A program made the position numbers and the translations under genes. 23,753 nt of DNA from UHGV virus genome UHGV-0105281. One strand, written 5' to 3'. The stretch comes from a virus. Below are positions 16,220 through 23,753 of the stretch, one piece after another (positions within the stretch are counted from its first letter, which is position 1; every line of letters begins with the position of its first letter). Below the pieces are notes generated by a model. That model did no database searches. It was not told the origin of the DNA and worked only from the letters and a program-made list of their open reading frames with translations.

Positions 16220-17599
16220 ATGGCTACGTGGCAACAGGGTATTAATTCTGGTGGTTTTCTGGCTGGAATTGGTGCGCAAAATGAGAATGCGCCAAAGGCA
16301 AGCGACATTAACGCAACGCTTGGTCTGATTCGCGAAAACAATGAACTGGCTCGATCAGGTGCAAATAACGTTGCTCTGACAGGTCTTCGTGGTCTGGCTG
16401 GAGTTGCTGATATTTATAAGCAGCAGCAACAGCAGGAGCGTAAAGCGGCATTCCAGAAAGGTTATGCGGATGCTTATGCGTCCGGCGACAGGGAGCAGAT
16501 GCGTAATCTTATTACAGCATTCCCCGAAGAGTTTGAGGAAGTCCGTAAAGGCATGGGGTATGTCGATGACGCCCAGCGGGATGATTTTGGCAATCTGGCG
16601 CTTAAGGCTCAGGTCGCTTCGTCGCTTGGTCCGGGTGCATTTGGCAGGTTCATGATGGATAACGAAAATGAGATGCGTCGTTTAGGTATCCCTCCAGAAA
16701 CTATTGCGGAAATGCAGGTTAATGACCCGCAGGGCTTCCAGCACTTCACAGGTAATCTGGCACTATTTTCTCTCGGTCATGAGAAGTACTTCGATATCAA
16801 AGATCGAATGGAGGGGCGTCGACTTGAAGGAGAAAGAAATCAGTTAACTGCTCGTGGTCAGGATATCACGATGCGCGGTCAGGATTTATCTGCTGCTACT
16901 GCACGGAGAGGTCAGGATTTAGCGATGCAGAGAGCATCAATGAAAGGGGCTGTTGGTAATAATGAGCGCACAGTTCAACTAGCAGACGGAAGAACTGTAA
17001 CCGTAGGCGGGAAGCTTCATGGTGCAGGTGCTAACGCGTTCTACGAAGGAATAGACAATGAGGGGAACATGGTTCGCGTTCCTGCTGGCTCTATTGCTGC
17101 TCCGGCCACGTCGGCAGCAAGCGCGCAGAATTACGCAATGAAGAAAGATCTTGATGCAATTTCTGGCGCATCAATTGACGATCTTGGCTTCATGACTGGC
17201 ATTACAGGCTCTTCAGGTTCTCCTGCTCTTGGTGCAGATATTCGTAGCCGTGCCTCTGGTGGTGATCAGAGGAAACTATACAACGCTGCACAGCGAATCC
17301 AAGGAAAGATGCAGAATCAGGGCATTGCAGCAGCCAGAGACATGGGGGCATCTGGTATCAACACCGTTGCAGAAGCAAAGATGTATTTTCAAGGTATGCC
17401 ACAGGTTGATTTCTCAAGCCCTGAAGCACTACAACAATCAATGCGCGACATTCAGCAATATACCGACAATTACAACCAGCAATATAACGTTAATGTCGGT
17501 AATGGCGGGAAGAAATCATCAAGGCAACAGCCAGCTACTCAGCAATCAGCAGGAGGTAGCTACACGTCAAAATCAGGCATTCAATTTACGGTGGAATGA
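16220..17599 (+). CDS. Ejection protein, gp20-like
   Basis: 459 aa in the gp20 position. Confidence 0.8.
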
Positions 17600-19425
17600 T
17601 GAAAGTAACTGCAAACGGTAAGACATTTACCTTTCCTGATGGTACGAGCACCGAAGATATTGGCACCGCCATTGATGAGTATTTTGCTGGTCAGGCTGTT
17701 CAGCAACAAACAGTTAATCAGGCCAATAATGCACCAACACAGGAAGAACCATCATTGATGCAACAAGCTGGCGATTGGCTCACTGGTGGTCAAAGTGCAG
17801 GGCAAATTGCAGAACAGGCTGGTCGTGGTCTGGTAAACATACCATTTGACGTATTGCAGGGTGGCGCAAGTCTGATTAATGCAATCAGCCAGGGGCTTGG
17901 TGGTCACAAGGTTTTGGACGATGTCTATCGTCCAGTAGATCGACCAACAGACCCTTATGCGCAAGCTGGAGAAACAATTGGCGGGTATTTAGTTCCAGGA
18001 GTTGGAACTGCAGGAAGCATGGCTATTGGATCACTGGCAGAAGCCGCAAACCAGAAAGGCGATTTCGCGCAAAATGCAGCCATAAACGCCGGAGTTAACC
18101 TTGCTGCTCAGGGTGTTCTTTCCGCAGCAGCAAAGGGAATAGGGCGTGGAATAACGGCTATAAAAGGCGATATCGCGCCAGAAGTAGCGAAAAAAATTGC
18201 CACCTCAGAATCGATGGGCGTGACACCAATGACATCTGATGTTATCCCGCCGAAAAATGCTTTCACTCGCGGCCTAACTCAGGATGCCGAGGGGGCTTTG
18301 CTCGGGACAGGCTCAAAGCGAGCTGAGCAGTATGCAAAAAGAAGTCAGCTAGTTAAAAAACAGCTTGAGAAATATGGTGAATATAGCCCATCAGTTGTTG
18401 TTGACGATCTGTATGGTTCTCTGAAGTCAAGGAAGGATTCGGCCGGAAGCGTTATTGAAGACATTACAGCCAAAATGGGAGACACACCAGTTGACACATC
18501 AAAATCTATTAAGGTTATCGACAACGTACTTACCAGAGCTAATAGGCTTGGGAAAGTGGCAAATAAGGATTTGATTCGCGGGTTATCCGATTTGCGAGAA
18601 GAACTTGCTAAACCAGATATAGATTTTGGTCTATTGAGAGAGTTGCGGTCAGCCTTGAGGGAAAGTATTCAGGGAGATGCCATGGTTTTTCCTAATAGCG
18701 CGAAAGCCGCAACTGATACCGTGGAGAGGGCAATGGGGGCAGATTTGAGGAATAACGCAGCGCGGTATTTGGGGGCTGGAGAGGCCGCCAGATACGTCAA
18801 GGCAAACTCTGACTACTCTAACGTCTTCAATAAGGTTCTTAATAAAAGGATTGCGAATAATCTCAACAAAGCTAAAAAAGAGTTTACTCCAGAGCTAATA
18901 AACAGTGTTGTATTCAGCAGAAAACCATCAGATATTAAGAGGATATGGCCAGCTCTTAGTGAAGATGGAAAGAACGCTATGCGTGCTGCTTATATCAGCA
19001 AGATTGCAGAAAAAGCAGGAGACTCGCCAACAAAATTTCTTACCGAGTTAAATAAGTTGAAGTCGCAATCTGACGGTCAGATCTATAACACGATATTCAG
19101 TGGGAGACACATGAAAGAGCTTGATGCTCTTCATGAAGTTCTACAGCAAACAGCAAGGTCGGACGCCGCAAATGTAGTAACACAGACAGGACAATCGCAA
19201 GCCAACAGGATAAGGACGATTGGCGCAACTGCGACTCTTGGCGTATCAATGGGGCTTGAGGCTGGTTTCGGTGCAATGATGCGCTTGTATGAGTCAAAAG
19301 CAGCAAGGAATGCTCTCTTACGTTTGGCAAACACCAAAGCAGGAACGCCAGCCTATGAAAGAGCATTAAGTAACGCTGCAAATGCCATCAGACCGCTGCT
19401 TGCCACTGAGGCAACACAGCAGTGA
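17596..19425 (+). CDS. Ejection protein, gp16-like
   Basis: 609 aa, same length as P22 gp16; ATGA overlap with gp20. Confidence 0.8.
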
Positions 19426-19691: not shown

Positions 19692-20333
19692 TCAAAGCAA
19701 CGGGATTTCAAGGTAAACTGCGGTTGCCAAAATACTAACATCTTCATTTCTAACAAGAATATTAGGATACATTGGGTTTAGGGATACTAGGTTTGTCTCT
19801 ATTTCACCAATGTAAACCTGTTTGAAGCTCAATATTTGCTCTTTATCCAATGATGCTATTACATAATCTTTGCTTTTAGCTTTTACTAGAGGGCTGAACG
19901 TGACAACCGATCCTCTGGGAAAGCTAATACCTGAACTTGTAGTCATAGCTTCACCTTCAATAGTCAATGCAAATGCAGAGTCACCAACATTGTATATTGC
20001 CGGATGAAATCTAGACGATGAATGTTCACCTGTGTTTAGGTAATGCATAACTTCATCTAGTTTGAGGATTGGTATTTGCTTTACCAGAACGTCAGGCATG
20101 ACGTTTTTTGTTCCCGGACCCTGACCTTCACCTAGAGCTAACCACTCAGCTGTAGTACCTAATGCGTTGGCTAATGCCTGCAATACCCGAAGCCGTGGTT
20201 TAGCCTCACCACCCTCGTATGCAGCTATTTGACGTTGAACAACACCAGCTAATTTTGACAACTGCGCCTGCGTCATACCCCTGGACTGTCTTGCCAGAGA
20301 TACTCTTGATGGGAATTGATCGTCAAAATTCAT
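19692..20333 (-). CDS. CI/LexA-like repressor (N-terminal HTH, C-terminal S24 peptidase fold) with Ser-to-Ala at the nucleophile position
   Basis: N-terminal HTH (GMTQAQLSKLAGVVQRQIAAYEGG); C-terminal S24-like region in which FALTIEGEAM aligns with LexA FLLRVSGMSM, placing Ala where the catalytic Ser sits (codon GCT confirmed in DNA); the Lys of the dyad is retained (SFKQV). Confidence 0.8.
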   Translation of the reverse strand: MNFDDQFPSRVSLARQSRGMTQAQLSKLAGVVQRQIAAYEGGEAKPRLRVLQALANALGTTAEWLALGEGQGPGTKNVMPDVLVKQIPILKLDEVMHYLNTGEHSSSRFHPAIYNVGDSAFALTIEGEAMTTSSGISFPRGSVVTFSPLVKAKSKDYVIASLDKEQILSFKQVYIGEIETNLVSLNPMYPNILVRNEDVSILATAVYLEIPLL

Positions 20334-20354
20334 TAGTTCACCATAAAAAATTCA

Positions 20355-20383
20355 TTGACTCATGCTGAGTGTGAGTGAATAAT
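20355..20383 (+). promoter_or_regulatory. Rightward promoter (TTGACT, 17-bp spacer, AATAAT) with overlapping operator-like palindrome and TGAGT repeats
   Basis: Promoter hexamers read directly; palindrome ACTCA-TGC-TGAGT at 20358-20370 and tandem TGAGTG at 20366-20377. Confidence 0.4.
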
Positions 20384-20432
20384 CAAACTACAAAAAGTGA
20401 GATTATGAGTTTTTTAAAAACAGGAGTGCATA

Positions 20433-20606
20433 ATGACTGAAAAGATATCTTCCATCAAGCCGCGTCAGGTTCGTTTTACAGAAAAGGTTGATTCACATAT
20501 CCGCGAATCAGCAAAAAGATGCCATAGGTCAATTCAGGCAGAGATAGCTTATCGAATGGAGTTATTGATGAAACTTGAGGCAAAGGGCGATGTTGTCATC
20601 CAATAA
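20433..20606 (+). CDS. Arc/Mnt-family ribbon-helix-helix regulator (57 aa)
   Basis: Not in the ORF track (under 60 aa). AGGAG RBS 6 nt upstream; PRQVRFTEKVDSHIRESAKRCHRSIQAEIAYRMELL parallels Arc PQFNLRWPREVLDLVRKVAEENGRSVNSEIYQRVMESF. Confidence 0.6.
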   Translation: MTEKISSIKPRQVRFTEKVDSHIRESAKRCHRSIQAEIAYRMELLMKLEAKGDVVIQ

Positions 20607-20679
20607 AAATAGTGAAGCCCGGCAGTGCGCGAACACAAACCGGGCCTCTATGTCAGTAACCGTATGCAAGGAAACTAAC

Positions 20680-21306
20680 ATGAATATTGTAGCAAAATCA
20701 GATTACAACTTCCACGGAGTTGAGTTGGTGCCCACCCGTGATATGCATGGTGTTTGGTTTACATCATCTAATATTGCATCTGCACTTAAATACGCAAATA
20801 GTCGTGCAGTAACAATGATTTATAACAAGTATAGCGATGAGTTTAGCGCCGGAATGACTCAGGTACTCGAAGTGAGTACCTCAGGAAATTATCGCAAAAA
20901 AGTGCGAGTTTTCTCACTACGCGGTGCCCACCTAATCGCGATGTTTGCTCGCACTCCGGTAGCCAAAGAGTTCCGCCGCTGGGTGCTGGATATTTTGGAT
21001 CGGCAGGCAGAATGCTCACCGATTGCAAAACAGTTTACTGACGAAGAACTGGTTAATCTCTGCTACTTACAATTGTGGATGGAGAAGAGTCAACAAATGT
21101 GCAAACACATCTACCCAGGAATGAAGCAAATTGGTTCTGAGCTTTCAGGAAGGATTTACGATATTGCATATGAGACTCGCTACATGTCAGAAGAAACCAA
21201 GAAATCACTTCTTCGTGAAATGAAGAATCTTGATACCAACAATTTTGTCGTAAAGAACGCTCAGCCAATGCTGGCAAAACTTCGCGGCGAGGAATGGATT
21301 CATTGA
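20680..21306 (+). CDS. Bro-N domain antirepressor-like protein
   Basis: 208 aa from ATG 20680 (AAGGA RBS); Bro-N-like N-terminus (FHGVELVPTRDMHGVWFTSSNIASALKY...SLRGAHLIAMFARTPVAKEFRRWVLDIL). The ORF-track start at 20575 overlaps the RHH gene. Confidence 0.7.
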   Translation: MNIVAKSDYNFHGVELVPTRDMHGVWFTSSNIASALKYANSRAVTMIYNKYSDEFSAGMTQVLEVSTSGNYRKKVRVFSLRGAHLIAMFARTPVAKEFRRWVLDILDRQAECSPIAKQFTDEELVNLCYLQLWMEKSQQMCKHIYPGMKQIGSELSGRIYDIAYETRYMSEETKKSLLREMKNLDTNNFVVKNAQPMLAKLRGEEWIH

Positions 21307-21321
21307 TTGGTGCGCCGGACT

Positions 21322-21400
21322 GCGCAAAAAGAAAACCGCCAGTGTGCTGCTGGCGGCCTATGTCACACCCTTACTACCACATAAGGAATGCCTAATGACT
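21322..21400 (-). ncRNA. Predicted sar-like antisense sRNA covering the RBS and start codon of the downstream Ant-like gene
   Basis: Minus-strand promoter inside the start of the Ant-like gene (-35 GTGACA at 21430-21435, 17-bp spacer, -10 TACATT at 21407-21412) and a minus-strand intrinsic terminator (hairpin 21336-21356 followed by a T-run at 21322-21335). Confidence 0.3.
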
Positions 21401-22123
21401 TTTAAGAATGTAGCAAACATCGGATCCGTTGTCACGGATAAAACCATTGATAGCCAGTACCTGTTAGAGATGGTCAATCATGCTCGTAGACAGTGCGGGG
21501 AAAAAGAAGTCCGAAATAACGACTTTATTGCACGCATTAAGGATGAACTTGAAGGTGAGCACTACGAAATTTTCGTAGTTCAAAAATCAAACAAGACAAC
21601 TTCTGAAAAAGTTGTTATGTCAATTAAGCAAGCCCTTCGAGTGGCTGCTCGTGAATCTAAAGCTGTTCGCCGCTCACTTGTAGACCAACTTGAAAGTATG
21701 CAAGAAGCGCACATTAAAAGCGGTAAATCGTCGAGTGGACTTGTTGAGTATCGCCAGGCGCGAACATTGAAAATGACGGTTGAAGCTGTTACCAATCTGT
21801 TCGATTTGATGCCAAATCTTGCGCCGGAAGCAAAGCAGACTGCGGCAGCAAGCATAATCAACCCGATCGTTGGTTTTAATGCAATACCTCTTCCAGCAAT
21901 AGAAGAGCATTACTACTCAGCAGGGGAGGTTGCAGAGCAGCTTGGAGTAACGGCCAACAAGATTGGTCGCATTGCTAACGCAAACAACCTCAAAACTGAG
22001 CAGTACGGGAAGTTCTTCCTGGATAAATCTGCACATTCCAGCAAACAGGTGGAAGCATTCCGCTACAATGCGGAAGGTGTTAAAGCTCTACAACACCTGA
22101 TTCATGGGAGTAATGTTGCATAA
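21395..22123 (+). CDS. Ant-like antirepressor (Rha/AntA-like N-terminus with KilA-C-like C-terminus)
   Basis: 242 aa from ATG 21395 (AAGGA RBS); N-terminal region resembles the pRha pattern and the C-terminal region resembles KilA-C (YYSAGEVAEQLGVTANKIGRIANANNLKTEQYGKFF). Confidence 0.55.
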   Translation: MTFKNVANIGSVVTDKTIDSQYLLEMVNHARRQCGEKEVRNNDFIARIKDELEGEHYEIFVVQKSNKTTSEKVVMSIKQALRVAARESKAVRRSLVDQLESMQEAHIKSGKSSSGLVEYRQARTLKMTVEAVTNLFDLMPNLAPEAKQTAAASIINPIVGFNAIPLPAIEEHYYSAGEVAEQLGVTANKIGRIANANNLKTEQYGKFFLDKSAHSSKQVEAFRYNAEGVKALQHLIHGSNVA

Positions 22124-22344
22124 TGGCAAAGAAAAAATATGGCATTATGCCGCCAAGAATCAAAGGAAGAGCCAGGGTAAAAGGCGATGCTGGGAGGTAT
22201 CACATTCTTGGAGTTCTGTGGCATGAGAGAGCTTTAATTTTAAGTAGACCTCATGGGTACATTGAAAAGGTATCTATAGATAGAGTAGAGATTCTTCCCC
22301 TTACACCTGAAGAAGAAGAAACGTACGGACTTTTTGATAACTAA
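22123..22344 (+). CDS. Hypothetical small basic protein (73 aa)
   Basis: TAATG-coupled to the upstream gene and followed by a strong terminator. Confidence 0.5.
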   Translation: MAKKKYGIMPPRIKGRARVKGDAGRYHILGVLWHERALILSRPHGYIEKVSIDRVEILPLTPEEEETYGLFDN

Positions 22345-22400: not shown

Positions 22401-22937
22401 TCAAACAACCCACCAGTTTGCCTGATTGGATACCAGCCTTGCAGTTTTTATGGAATTAATTATGCCATGCTCAAGAGCCTTGTTAGCATCCAAAATGGTC
22501 GAGTCTGCTATCAGGGATGCCCACCTAATATGGGTTCCGATGTCGATATTGAACGTCTCAACGAAGCGATCAAGATCGTTATCGAGGCATTTCCCGTACT
22601 CTCTCAATCTGGCATGGTCGGCGGCTGGGGAGGCAAAGCACCATAATAGAGGATGTAACAGGAATCTTGATAATGGGTTTGCGAAACGTTCTGAGCCAGC
22701 CAGGAAAACGATATTAGCTATGGATTCAACATTGCTTATGTTGTGAGTTCTAACGGTAACAGGGAGTGACTTAAGAAAGTTATACGCAGTAAAGCCAGCG
22801 GCTGTTTCCCCTCCCTGACTTGATATATGGATATTTAATTCAGTTGCGCCTTGAGATAATGCGGTGAGACAGTGGTTCTGAAGTTGCCCAACAGTGGCGG
22901 TGTTAACGGGGCATAAGAAATGAATTGTGTGCAGCAT
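22401..22937 (-). CDS. ClpP-fold (peptidase S14-like) serine protease, translationally coupled to mnt
   Basis: 178 aa; aligns by eye with E. coli ClpP over the catalytic core, with Ser (VESIANIVFLAG), His (FLLHPLL) and Asp (ADSTIL) all present; its ATG overlaps the mnt stop (TAATG). Confidence 0.7.
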   Translation of the reverse strand: MLHTIHFLCPVNTATVGQLQNHCLTALSQGATELNIHISSQGGETAAGFTAYNFLKSLPVTVRTHNISNVESIANIVFLAGSERFANPLSRFLLHPLLWCFASPAADHARLREYGKCLDNDLDRFVETFNIDIGTHIRWASLIADSTILDANKALEHGIINSIKTARLVSNQANWWVV

Positions 22938-23191
22938 TATTTATCATCCTTGCCATAAATCTTTTTAAGTGTCTCAAACACAACAGTCTTGAACTGCTCT
23001 GCTTGCTGATCAGCCAAGCGTTCAGCTTCGTCTCGATAGCCTGCAATCGGTGATGGTTCAGATAACGCCTTCTGTACGATCTGAACTAGTTCAGAATTGA
23101 TAGACCGACCATTCATTTTTGCCCTTTGGTCTAACTTTGCTTTTAACTCTGCTGGAAGGCGCAACTTAAATTGTGGGTCTTCTCTGGACAT
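22937..23191 (-). CDS. mnt: Mnt repressor (ribbon-helix-helix)
   Basis: 84 aa; MSREDPQFKLRLPAELKAKLDQRAKMNGRSINSELVQIVQKALSEPSPIAGYRDEAERLADQQ closely matches my recollection of P22 Mnt. Confidence 0.85.
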   Translation of the reverse strand: MSREDPQFKLRLPAELKAKLDQRAKMNGRSINSELVQIVQKALSEPSPIAGYRDEAERLADQQAEQFKTVVFETLKKIYGKDDK

Positions 23192-23210: not shown

Positions 23211-23262
23211 TTGACAGTCTATAACGGTGATAGTACATTCTCAATTGAACCACGGTGGTTCA
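23211..23262 (+). promoter_or_regulatory. Pant-like promoter with candidate Arc operator in the spacer and Mnt-type 17-bp palindromic operator at the transcript start
   Basis: TTGACA (23211-23216), 17-bp spacer containing CTAT-aacggtg-ATAG, -10 TACATT (23234-23239), palindrome TGAACCAC-G-GTGGTTCA at 23246-23262. Confidence 0.6.
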
Positions 23263-23278
23263 TTGATTGGGAGAGGGT

Positions 23279-23437
23279 ATGCAAGGTGCAAGAAAAATGC
23301 CGCAGTTTAATTTGCGGATGCCTAAAGAAGTATTGGATTTGGTGCGCAAGGTAGCCAAAGAGAATGAGCGATCTGTTAACTCTGAGATTTACAAGCGAGT
23401 ATTGGACAGCCTGAAGAGGGAGGGGGTAATGGTATGA
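23279..23437 (+). CDS. arc: Arc repressor (ribbon-helix-helix)
   Basis: 52 aa, not in the ORF track; MQGARKMPQFNLRMPKEVLDLVRKVAKENERSVNSEIYKRVLDSLKREG closely matches my recollection of P22 Arc; GGGAGAGGG RBS. Confidence 0.85.
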   Translation: MQGARKMPQFNLRMPKEVLDLVRKVAKENERSVNSEIYKRVLDSLKREGVMV

Positions 23438-23703
23438 GGGTGTCATTGCTTGATCGTTCTTTACAATTTTTGTCTGGCGCAATCATTGTGGTTTGCTTGC
23501 TTGTGATTTTTACAGCGCTAATCAATATGTATCAATCAGGGGAACGATTGACAAAGACGATAGAGGAAAAGAAATCAGTCTCAAATTACGAAGTATCACA
23601 TGCACATAACGATTTAGTAGAAAGCCTTGACCGTATTAACAAGAGGCTTGACGAGACAAATATGCTACTTAAGCAAATTCAAAATGAAGTGGAAAAACGT
23701 TGA
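23434..23703 (+). CDS. Membrane-anchored coiled-coil protein (89 aa) in the position ant occupies in P22
   Basis: ATGA overlap with the arc stop; N-terminal TM helix (FLSGAIIVVCLLVIFTALINMY) and a charged helical C-terminus. Confidence 0.55.
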   Translation: MRVSLLDRSLQFLSGAIIVVCLLVIFTALINMYQSGERLTKTIEEKKSVSNYEVSHAHNDLVESLDRINKRLDETNMLLKQIQNEVEKR

Positions 23704-23753
23704 AGCCCCAACTGCTGGAACAGTCAGGGCTTCGGTATCAACAAATCGTCTTA

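Follow-up and report, generated by a model that had tools for sequence, protein, structure and literature searches.

The 23,753-nucleotide (nt) window analyzed here, the whole of the stretch UHGV-0105281, is part of a P22-like (Lederbergvirus-type) E. coli prophage. At the start of a 242-amino-acid (aa) gene, the second antirepressor-like gene of its operon, the window carries the signals of a leftward transcript of about 75 nt, and we consider it likely that this cis-encoded antisense RNA exists and represses the gene. Judged from sequence comparison, the element appears to be a new RNA family of a well-known kind, namely a sar-type cis-antisense regulator of a phage antirepressor gene. The features concerned are listed by their positions in the window.

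21435-21430, minus strand: -35 hexamer GTGACA of the antisense promoter, in codons 12-14 (GTT GTC ACG) of the 242-aa gene
21413-21429, minus strand: 17-bp spacer ending in TGC; the TG of the extended -10 is the plus-strand CA at 21414-21415
21412-21407, minus strand: -10 hexamer TACATT, in codons 5-6 (AAT GTA) of the 242-aa gene
21326-21400, minus strand: predicted antisense RNA of about 75 nt, 5' AGUCAUUAGGCAUUCCUUAUGUGG ... GGCGGUUUUCUUUUU 3'
21369-21386, minus strand: 5' hairpin CCUUAU/GUAAGG from the fold, its 5' arm an anti-Shine-Dalgarno sequence
21326-21359, minus strand: intrinsic terminator, with stem 21359-21350 paired to 21342-21333, loop 21349-21343, and a U-tract to 21326
21383-21397, plus strand: translation initiation region of the target (Shine-Dalgarno AAGGA at 21383-21387, ATG at 21395-21397), wholly within the antisense RNA
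21395-22123, plus strand: 242-aa target gene, PHROG 1726

An earlier note on this DNA had proposed a leftward promoter in the start of the gene and an antisense RNA ending at a hairpin upstream, and our analysis recovered each of these signals. The minus-strand GTGACA, the 17-bp spacer, and TACATT are present at 21435-21407. They have the architecture that the note had ascribed to the Pant-like promoter farther right, which reads TTGACA-17-TACATT at 23211-23239 and has the same -10 and spacing. The hairpin consists of ccgccag (21336-21342), a tgtgctg loop, and ctggcgg (21350-21356). A minus-strand scan extended it to a 10-pair terminator stem (21359-21333) with a tail reported as TCTTTTTGCG / UUUUCUUUUU, while the plus strand continues after the hairpin as cctatgtcacaccc, without a T-run. 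The flanks on both strands thus confirm that the T-run belongs to the minus strand only. We placed the start of the RNA near 21400, 7 nt after the -10, using the annotated geometry of the P22 promoter Psar; this yields a predicted transcript from 21400 to 21326 that covers the ribosome-binding site and ATG, as the note had anticipated.

The two halves of the element form a rare combination. Under stricter criteria, only two strong terminators occur in the whole 23.7-kb window, and only one promoter lies 45-110 nt from a strong terminator; no such pair arose in 100 dinucleotide-preserving shuffles. The expectation that annotation would have missed the element also held. The closest phage record, Escherichia phage JEP4 (95% identity across the module), has no annotated feature in the intergenic regions of the module, and the RefSeq E. 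coli chromosome that we inspected has no annotation at the element. The start codon of the 242-aa gene at 21395 is annotated in both. Two short open reading frames that overlap the element were set aside: one on the minus strand (21358-21477, 39 aa) begins upstream of the predicted RNA start, and one on the plus strand (21294-21395, 33 aa) spans a mosaic boundary and is not conserved.

Conservation of the putative promoter and covariation of the predicted RNA

The 242-aa protein has about 2,100 detectable homologues, and we retrieved the surroundings of relatives at 80 viral and 63 genome loci. A covariance model, R1, was built on 19 variants of the predicted RNA with the promoter left out. 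R1 found exactly one match per locus in 44 loci (42 distinct sequences), and every match lay opposite the gene's strand and abutted the gene start. The match in the window spans 21325-21400 and scores 93.5 bits. The hosts include E. coli, Salmonella, Klebsiella, Serratia, Buttiauxella, Citrobacter, Proteus, Providencia, Erwinia, Kluyvera, Pantoea, Yersinia, and others, and the element sequence is present in 77 of 5,426 complete E. coli genomes. E. coli Z0117EC0117 (NZ_CP098187) is one carrier.

R1 contains no promoter positions; therefore, the sequence upstream of its matches is an unbiased sample. Among 39 distinct upstream sequences, 36 have GTGACA (35 sequences) or TCGACA (one), a spacer of exactly 17 bp, and TAnAnT preceded by TGn. 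The spacer length is the same in all 36 of these variants while the spacer sequence varies, and the -10 occurs as TACATT, TAAATT, TAAAGT, or TACAGT, with TAnAnT kept throughout. The three remaining upstream sequences all come from relatives with a Bro-N N-terminus, which carry the sigma-70-like sequences TTGACT-18-TACTAT and TTGACT-16-GATAAT at the same place. This looks like promoter turnover instead of loss. Some promoter-like sequence accompanies the element, with its terminator, in all 42 distinct matches.

The codons that hold the promoter are constrained at the level of single bases. By parsimony over 33 distinct gene starts, there were no third-position changes at codons 5, 6, 7, 12, and 13, compared with 8, 4, 4, and 5 changes in the spacer codons 8-11 and 4 and 3 in the flanking codons 14-15. 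Only 8 of 57 third positions showed no change at all. The motif positions had been set beforehand by the earlier note, and our own hypergeometric estimate of the chance that all five fall among the eight unchanged sites is ~1e-5. The amino acids themselves are less constrained than these bases. Codon 6 is GTA (Val) or TTA (Leu), and codon 7 is GCA, ACA, or TCA, so that the amino acid differs while the motif bases, CA in the case of codon 7, stay. Codon 12 is GTT, TCT, GCT, ATT, or GAT, which specify five amino acids but always end in T. All 30 variants have GTC at codon 13, and the third base of codon 14, just beyond the hexamer, varies freely.

The predicted structure covaries. In the R1-fitted alignment of the 42 distinct sequences, 94.5% of pair cells are standard, and 9 of 15 pairs have changes on both sides. 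None of 500 shuffles reached the observed covariation score, and in controls with the 3' partner slid by 1-3 columns, just 23-57% of cells paired. The 5' hairpin has compensatory changes in all five pairs, with 87% of cells paired, and the terminator has 97.6% of cells paired. Independently of the R1 alignment, the terminator arms CCGCCAG/CTGGCGG, CCAGCAG/CTGCTGG, CCGCCAA/TTGGCGG, and CCGATAG/CTATCGG are all perfectly paired, and the commonest stem, CCGCCAG/CTGGCGG, carries 13 different loop sequences.

The same alignment distinguishes the strands, since a G·U pair in the minus-strand RNA corresponds to an A·C mismatch in the plus-strand RNA. Over all pairs, we counted 81 G·U cells, which pair only in the minus RNA, and 4 A·C cells, which pair only in the plus RNA; the 5' hairpin contributes 27 and 4, respectively. 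Likewise, two imperfect terminator-arm variants have G·U in the minus-strand RNA where the plus-strand counterpart is A·C. Therefore, the structure under selection in this model-fitted alignment belongs to the minus-strand RNA. As a separate observation, six loci with one type of upstream context (L009, L024, L026, L037, L040, and L049) have CTGGCGG, or CTGGTGG in L009 and L024, before an A-run at ~2415-2450. The resulting extra inverted repeat, CTGGCGG-TGAAAAAAA-CCGCCAG, could compete with the terminator hairpin.

Several points weigh against an antisense RNA. The minus-strand RNA folds at -25.1 kcal/mol, which as a single sequence is only moderately beyond shuffles (z = -2.55), and the plus-strand leader folds nearly equally well (z = -2.37). 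The -35 begins with G, the promoter scores 9/12, and promoter-like sites of that score number 10 in the region against 6.7 ± 2.5 in shuffles; the promoter match by itself is not significant. About 50 of the 81 G·U cells come from pairing of the U-tract with the stem base, which leaves a remainder of about 30 to 4. Fitting the alignment (A3) to the model structure favors pairing and tolerates G·U above A·C, and because the loci share descent, the counts do not represent independent events. Finally, some homologues lack the element: L077, L079, and L083 have no R1 match, and L118, L122, L130, and L131 lack it by inspection. Because of these homologues, the element is not obligatory for the gene family. 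The homologous genes without the terminator have quite different N-termini, and L077-type loci and L118 instead have plus-strand terminator-like hairpins upstream.

Pure chance is excluded by the conservation, but the conserved bases might serve another purpose. It is conceivable, though in our judgment unlikely, that the terminator alone is functional, either stopping stray minus-strand transcription from the side of mnt and a ClpP-like gene or acting as a stabilizing or processing hairpin between cistrons, while the hexamers are unused and are kept by constraint on the protein or on translation initiation. Such an explanation would suit a promoter of 9/12 at near chance frequency, the two minus-strand genes (22401-23191) that lie upstream of the terminator in its orientation, and the reduced synonymous change that is often seen at gene 5' ends. 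Constraint of that general type does not match the pattern in the codons, however. The unchanged third positions coincide exactly with the -35, the -10, and the TG while the spacer codons vary freely, the amino acids differ where the motif bases stay, the 17-bp spacing is invariant, and another promoter-like sequence takes the place of the motif in the Bro-N variants. Residues 1-14 are predicted to lack structure and, in relatives, lie ahead of a complete Rha domain. In KP12 and SPN3UB, moreover, the annotated genes downstream of the element are all on the plus strand over the ~2-2.5 kb fetched, and therefore a minus-strand terminator there needs a local promoter.

A function of the structure in the sense mRNA seems more improbable still. 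Here, a folded leader would hide the Shine-Dalgarno sequence and AUG, with the GC hairpin serving as an RNase III site or as a stabilizer between cistrons, and there would be no antisense RNA. Structure in either strand is mirrored in the other, and the plus-strand fold does place the Shine-Dalgarno sequence in a stem, at the z-score given above. The strand comparison contradicts this option: G·U cells far outnumber A·C cells, every imperfect stem variant has G·U in the minus-strand RNA where the plus-strand RNA would have A·C, and the U-tract is found only on the minus strand. A mirror-image sense structure may exist alongside the antisense RNA. We give very little credence to the idea that the conserved bases are instead a protein-binding site, for example, an operator for the ribbon-helix-helix (RHH, Arc-like), Mnt, or CI-like repressor. 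The module does encode three DNA-binding regulators, and TGTCAC occurs twice, 69 bp apart (21361 and 21430). The hexamer is found 12 times in the window against 12.6 expected, however, and other variants do not keep the copy in the leader, so we rejected an operator role for the two copies. In addition, the operon control region (20340-20420) has different repeats, and the conserved bases lack dyad symmetry and fit the -35/TG/-10 consensus at canonical spacing. An antisense promoter paired with its own terminator remains our preferred account of the element.

The antirepressor module and its second gene

The 242-aa gene belongs to an extra module placed between a 609-aa DNA-transfer gene (17596-19425) and the canonical immI region. 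The neighboring features are given in order of position, and the operon runs in the order RHH gene, Ant-like gene, 242-aa gene, and orf73.

19692-20333, minus strand: CI-like repressor gene of the extra module, HTH_3 and Peptidase_S24 domains (CI/LexA-like)
20433-20606: RHH gene of the extra module, 57 aa, heading the operon
20596-20694, minus-strand RNA: diverged sar-type element, between the RHH stop (20606) and the first Ant-like ATG (20680)
20680-21306: first Ant-like gene of the extra module (ATG at 20680), Bro-N and P22_AR_C, antirepressor homologue
after the 242-aa gene: 73-aa gene (orf73), last gene of the extra module
22937-23191, minus strand: mnt, canonical immI region
23267-23437: arc, canonical immI region
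23698-23753, minus strand: true sar (Rfam sar, 51.2 bits), cut by the end of the window

The operon promoter is TTGACT-17-AATAAT at 20355-20383. The CI/LexA-like repressor gene is divergent from the RHH-Ant operon (19692-20432), and a 19-nt inverted repeat (20344-20362 and 20398-20416) lies on either side of the operon promoter. A direct repeat, AAAATTCATT, also stands beside it, at 20325 and 20347. These repeats are likely operators of SOS-cleavable control over the antirepressor module. In JEP4, the genes of the module are labeled C2 repressor, hypothetical, "Rha," "KilA," and hypothetical.

The 242-aa protein matched PHROG 1726, "anti-repressor," with E = 2.4e-100, residues 1-242 aligning to profile positions 1-264. 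Pfam, NCBIfam, and Protein Data Bank (PDB) sequence searches with the protein returned nothing significant. Foldseek against viral models gave proteins named antirepressor or KilAC (E = 1.7e-9 to 1e-7) at a TM score of about 0.3, a low value that we put down to domain flexibility; the query model has a pLDDT of 69.5. The earlier note had called the gene a KilA-C Ant-like gene. The "Ant-like" part of that label appears reasonable from the PHROG and fold matches. The "KilA-C" part would follow from those same matches and is not confirmed at the sequence level, with no match to Pfam KilA-C (ANT, PF03374) for the 242-aa protein (E ≤ 10) or for 12 relatives (E ≤ 1).

The start of the protein differs from the rest of it. 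In the AlphaFold model, residues 1-14 are unstructured and the folded N-domain begins at residue 17, with a mean pLDDT of 32 for residues 1-10. Proteins encoded downstream of the element have a common C-terminal half (residues ~110-242) and swapped N-terminal domains. The types found on the common C-terminal half are the window type (no Pfam match), Phage_pRha, and Bro-N. By locus, the Rha type occurs in L099, L105, and L110-L113, and the Bro-N type in L101, L102, and L116. A further type, ORF6N, occurs in L004 and in SPN3UB and is joined to another C-terminus. In Rha-type proteins, the promoter-bearing extension comes first and the Pfam domain starts at residue 16. Window-type and Rha-type genes have the leader and the first ~15 codons in common and diverge right past the -35 hexamer. 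On the other side, the upstream mosaic boundaries fall at the plus-strand A-run, where the predicted RNA ends in its terminator U-tract, and at least five different upstream contexts are joined there. Our inference is that carrying the antisense promoter is the main reason for the N-terminal extension and that terminator, leader, start, and extension move as a single unit.

A few features of the surrounding DNA differ from JEP4 or P22. A ClpP-family protease-like gene (178 aa, 22401-22937, minus strand) lies between the antirepressor module and mnt; it is not in JEP4, where mnt directly follows the 73-aa gene. An 89-aa open reading frame (23434-23703, plus strand) sits between arc and sar and overlaps the sar terminator, whereas in P22, arc abuts sar. 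This frame has no significant Pfam match, only a weak, sub-threshold one to DUF1664. Two adjacent tRNA genes are found on the plus strand at 2390-2461 and 2470-2542 (Rfam tRNA, 55 and 61 bits).

Relation to sar and other phage RNAs

The element and P22 sar are alike in layout. P22 sar is 70 nt long and is encoded on the opposite strand, as is the ~75-nt RNA predicted here. Its promoter, Psar, is annotated as GTGTTA-17-TATACT with TGC before the -10, in codons 3-11 of ant. Both systems have a promoter in the first codons with a 17-bp spacer and TGC before the -10, and both have a hairpin terminator in the upstream intergenic region and an RNA that covers the Shine-Dalgarno sequence. In each, a 5' hairpin is followed by the terminator hairpin, with UGACA just 5' of the terminator, and the operon is headed by a small RHH repressor gene. 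The element thus has the sar arrangement, antisense to the ribosome-binding site with a promoter in the first codons and an upstream terminator, and its predicted 76-nt fold has the 5' stem-loop and terminator stem-loop of a ~70-nt sar RNA.

The differences are also clear. The terminator stem is CCGCCAG here and GAAGCCCC in P22 sar, and the U-tract is canonical here (UUUUCUUUUU) compared with AACUUU in P22 sar. The promoter lies 6 nt deeper into the gene than Psar, and the RNA also covers the ATG and codon 2, whereas annotated P22 sar ends just before the ATG. Unlike that of P22 sar, the target here is the second antirepressor-like gene, downstream of the Ant homologue.

The likeness that the earlier note had drawn to P22 sar therefore extends to the layout and the two-hairpin fold, but not to covariance-model similarity in either direction. 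Rfam sar (RF00262, gathering threshold 43 bits) has no match at 21250-21500 even at E ≤ 10, and R1 has no match at E ≤ 0.01 to P22 sar (L087) or to the first intergenic element of the window. The same Rfam sar search recovered the true sar of the window (23698-23753) and the sar of SPN3UB, L068, and L093. Searching the whole window against Rfam at the gathering threshold, and 21250-21500 at E ≤ 10, yielded no sar or C4 at the element; in the latter region, the search gave only chance-level matches to terminator-like parts of Hrs13 and NsiR4. By analogy of arrangement, the element is best regarded as a putative functional analogue of sar that forms a separate family and is not a member of RF00262. 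A distant common ancestry with sar is plausible but unproven.

Both kinds of RNA occur in the same operons. SPN3UB, L068, and L093 have a genuine sar (Rfam 45-50 bits) at the junction of an arc-like gene and ant, about 650-750 nt upstream of the element in the same operon, and KP12 and KpnBHU6 have sub-threshold sar matches at the arc-like/ant junction. The window has the diverged sar-type element at the corresponding place before its first Ant-like gene. The diverged element has an extended -10, TGCTACAAT, in codons 3-5 of that gene, and its minus-strand RNA folds at -33.8 kcal/mol (z = -4.9) into a 5' hairpin that includes an anti-Shine-Dalgarno sequence, followed by a GGCCCGG hairpin and a U-rich tail. 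Across the 22 variants in which the diverged element is conserved, compensatory changes occur. It resembles the element at 21326-21400 in layout and has the UGACAUAG motif in common with it, but differs in its GGCCCGG terminator stem and its leader, and neither R1 nor Rfam sar matches it. The diverged element is closer to sar proper, because its promoter is identical to that of the Rfam-positive SPN3UB sar. Thus, each antirepressor-like gene of the module seems to be gated by an antisense RNA of its own.

These observations suggest a broader reading, in which we place slightly less than even confidence. The element may be a portable antisense-control cassette of ~115 bp, made up of the terminator, leader, Shine-Dalgarno sequence, ATG, and a ~15-codon extension that encodes the promoter, and grafted by recombination onto antirepressor-like genes with unrelated N-domains (window, Rha, and ORF6N types). 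Placed in tandem with sar or the diverged sar, it would provide one antisense gate for each gene of a two-antirepressor operon. If so, the window would contain three sar-type RNAs within 3.2 kb.

Other known RNAs are more distant. C4 of P1 and P7 (RF01695) is, like the element, a small RNA that silences a phage antirepressor gene, ant, and provides a second immunity layer. C4 is processed from a same-strand precursor and acts on upstream sites, on icd translation and thereby on ant transcription. The convergent cis-antisense arrangement predicted for the element, with a separate promoter and terminator, is not that of C4, and Rfam C4 has no match in the window at the gathering threshold or in the region 21250-21500 at E ≤ 10. 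Lambda OOP and P22 sas resemble the element as short phage RNAs with their own promoter, antisense to a regulatory or exclusion gene, and OOP has a terminator of its own as well. The overlap of OOP with cII is at the 3' end of that gene, and OOP acts by RNase III cleavage; sas redirects translation within sieB. Neither covers an antirepressor ribosome-binding site, and neither matches the element in sequence. The element is described in neither Rfam, the phage and RefSeq annotations inspected, nor the searchable literature; it is not among the prophage antisense RNAs STnc6030 and STnc1310 (Owen et al. 2020; PMC7067206).

Proposed mechanism and significance

From the signals and their conservation, we propose how the RNA would be produced and would act. 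A sigma-70 promoter with an extended -10, embedded in codons 5-14 of the 242-aa gene, would drive leftward transcription that starts near 21400 and stops at the intergenic intrinsic terminator, with a 3' end at about 21326-21330. Complementarity of the RNA to the mRNA would be perfect, extending from 69 nt before the ATG through codon 2 and including the leader and the Shine-Dalgarno sequence. Pairing with the operon mRNA would block 30S binding, and the duplex would probably be an RNase III target. As a result, the second antirepressor-like protein would not be made from leaky or residual operon transcripts, which is what P22 sar does for ant; the mechanism reported for sar is the basis of this analogy. 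When the operon is on, convergent transcription from its promoter (20355-20383) could dampen the antisense promoter.

The starts of the RHH, 242-aa, and 73-aa genes (20422-20445, 21384-21407, and 22117-22153) have a common AGGAnTGCnTAATG-type sequence, in repeats D1 and D3. We considered pairing of the RNA in trans with the RHH start (8 + 8 bp; D3, 20422-20445) and rejected it, as the predicted energy of -22.4 kcal/mol is no better than that of random 51-nt windows (mean -25.6).

In temperate phages, antirepressor modules govern the choice between silence and induction, and P22 sar is a textbook case of antisense control. Should the RNA prove real, the principle behind sar would be a design that recurs in multiple copies and not a curiosity of P22 alone. 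It would represent an unannotated family, absent from Rfam, in prophages of at least a dozen Enterobacterales genera, and it would occur in tandem with sar in the same operon. In practical terms, the analysis would provide a new covariance model for genome annotation. The element would also be a clear case of N-terminal codons shaped by an embedded antisense promoter, which would bear on start-codon annotation, on the reading of N-terminal conservation, and on phage engineering.

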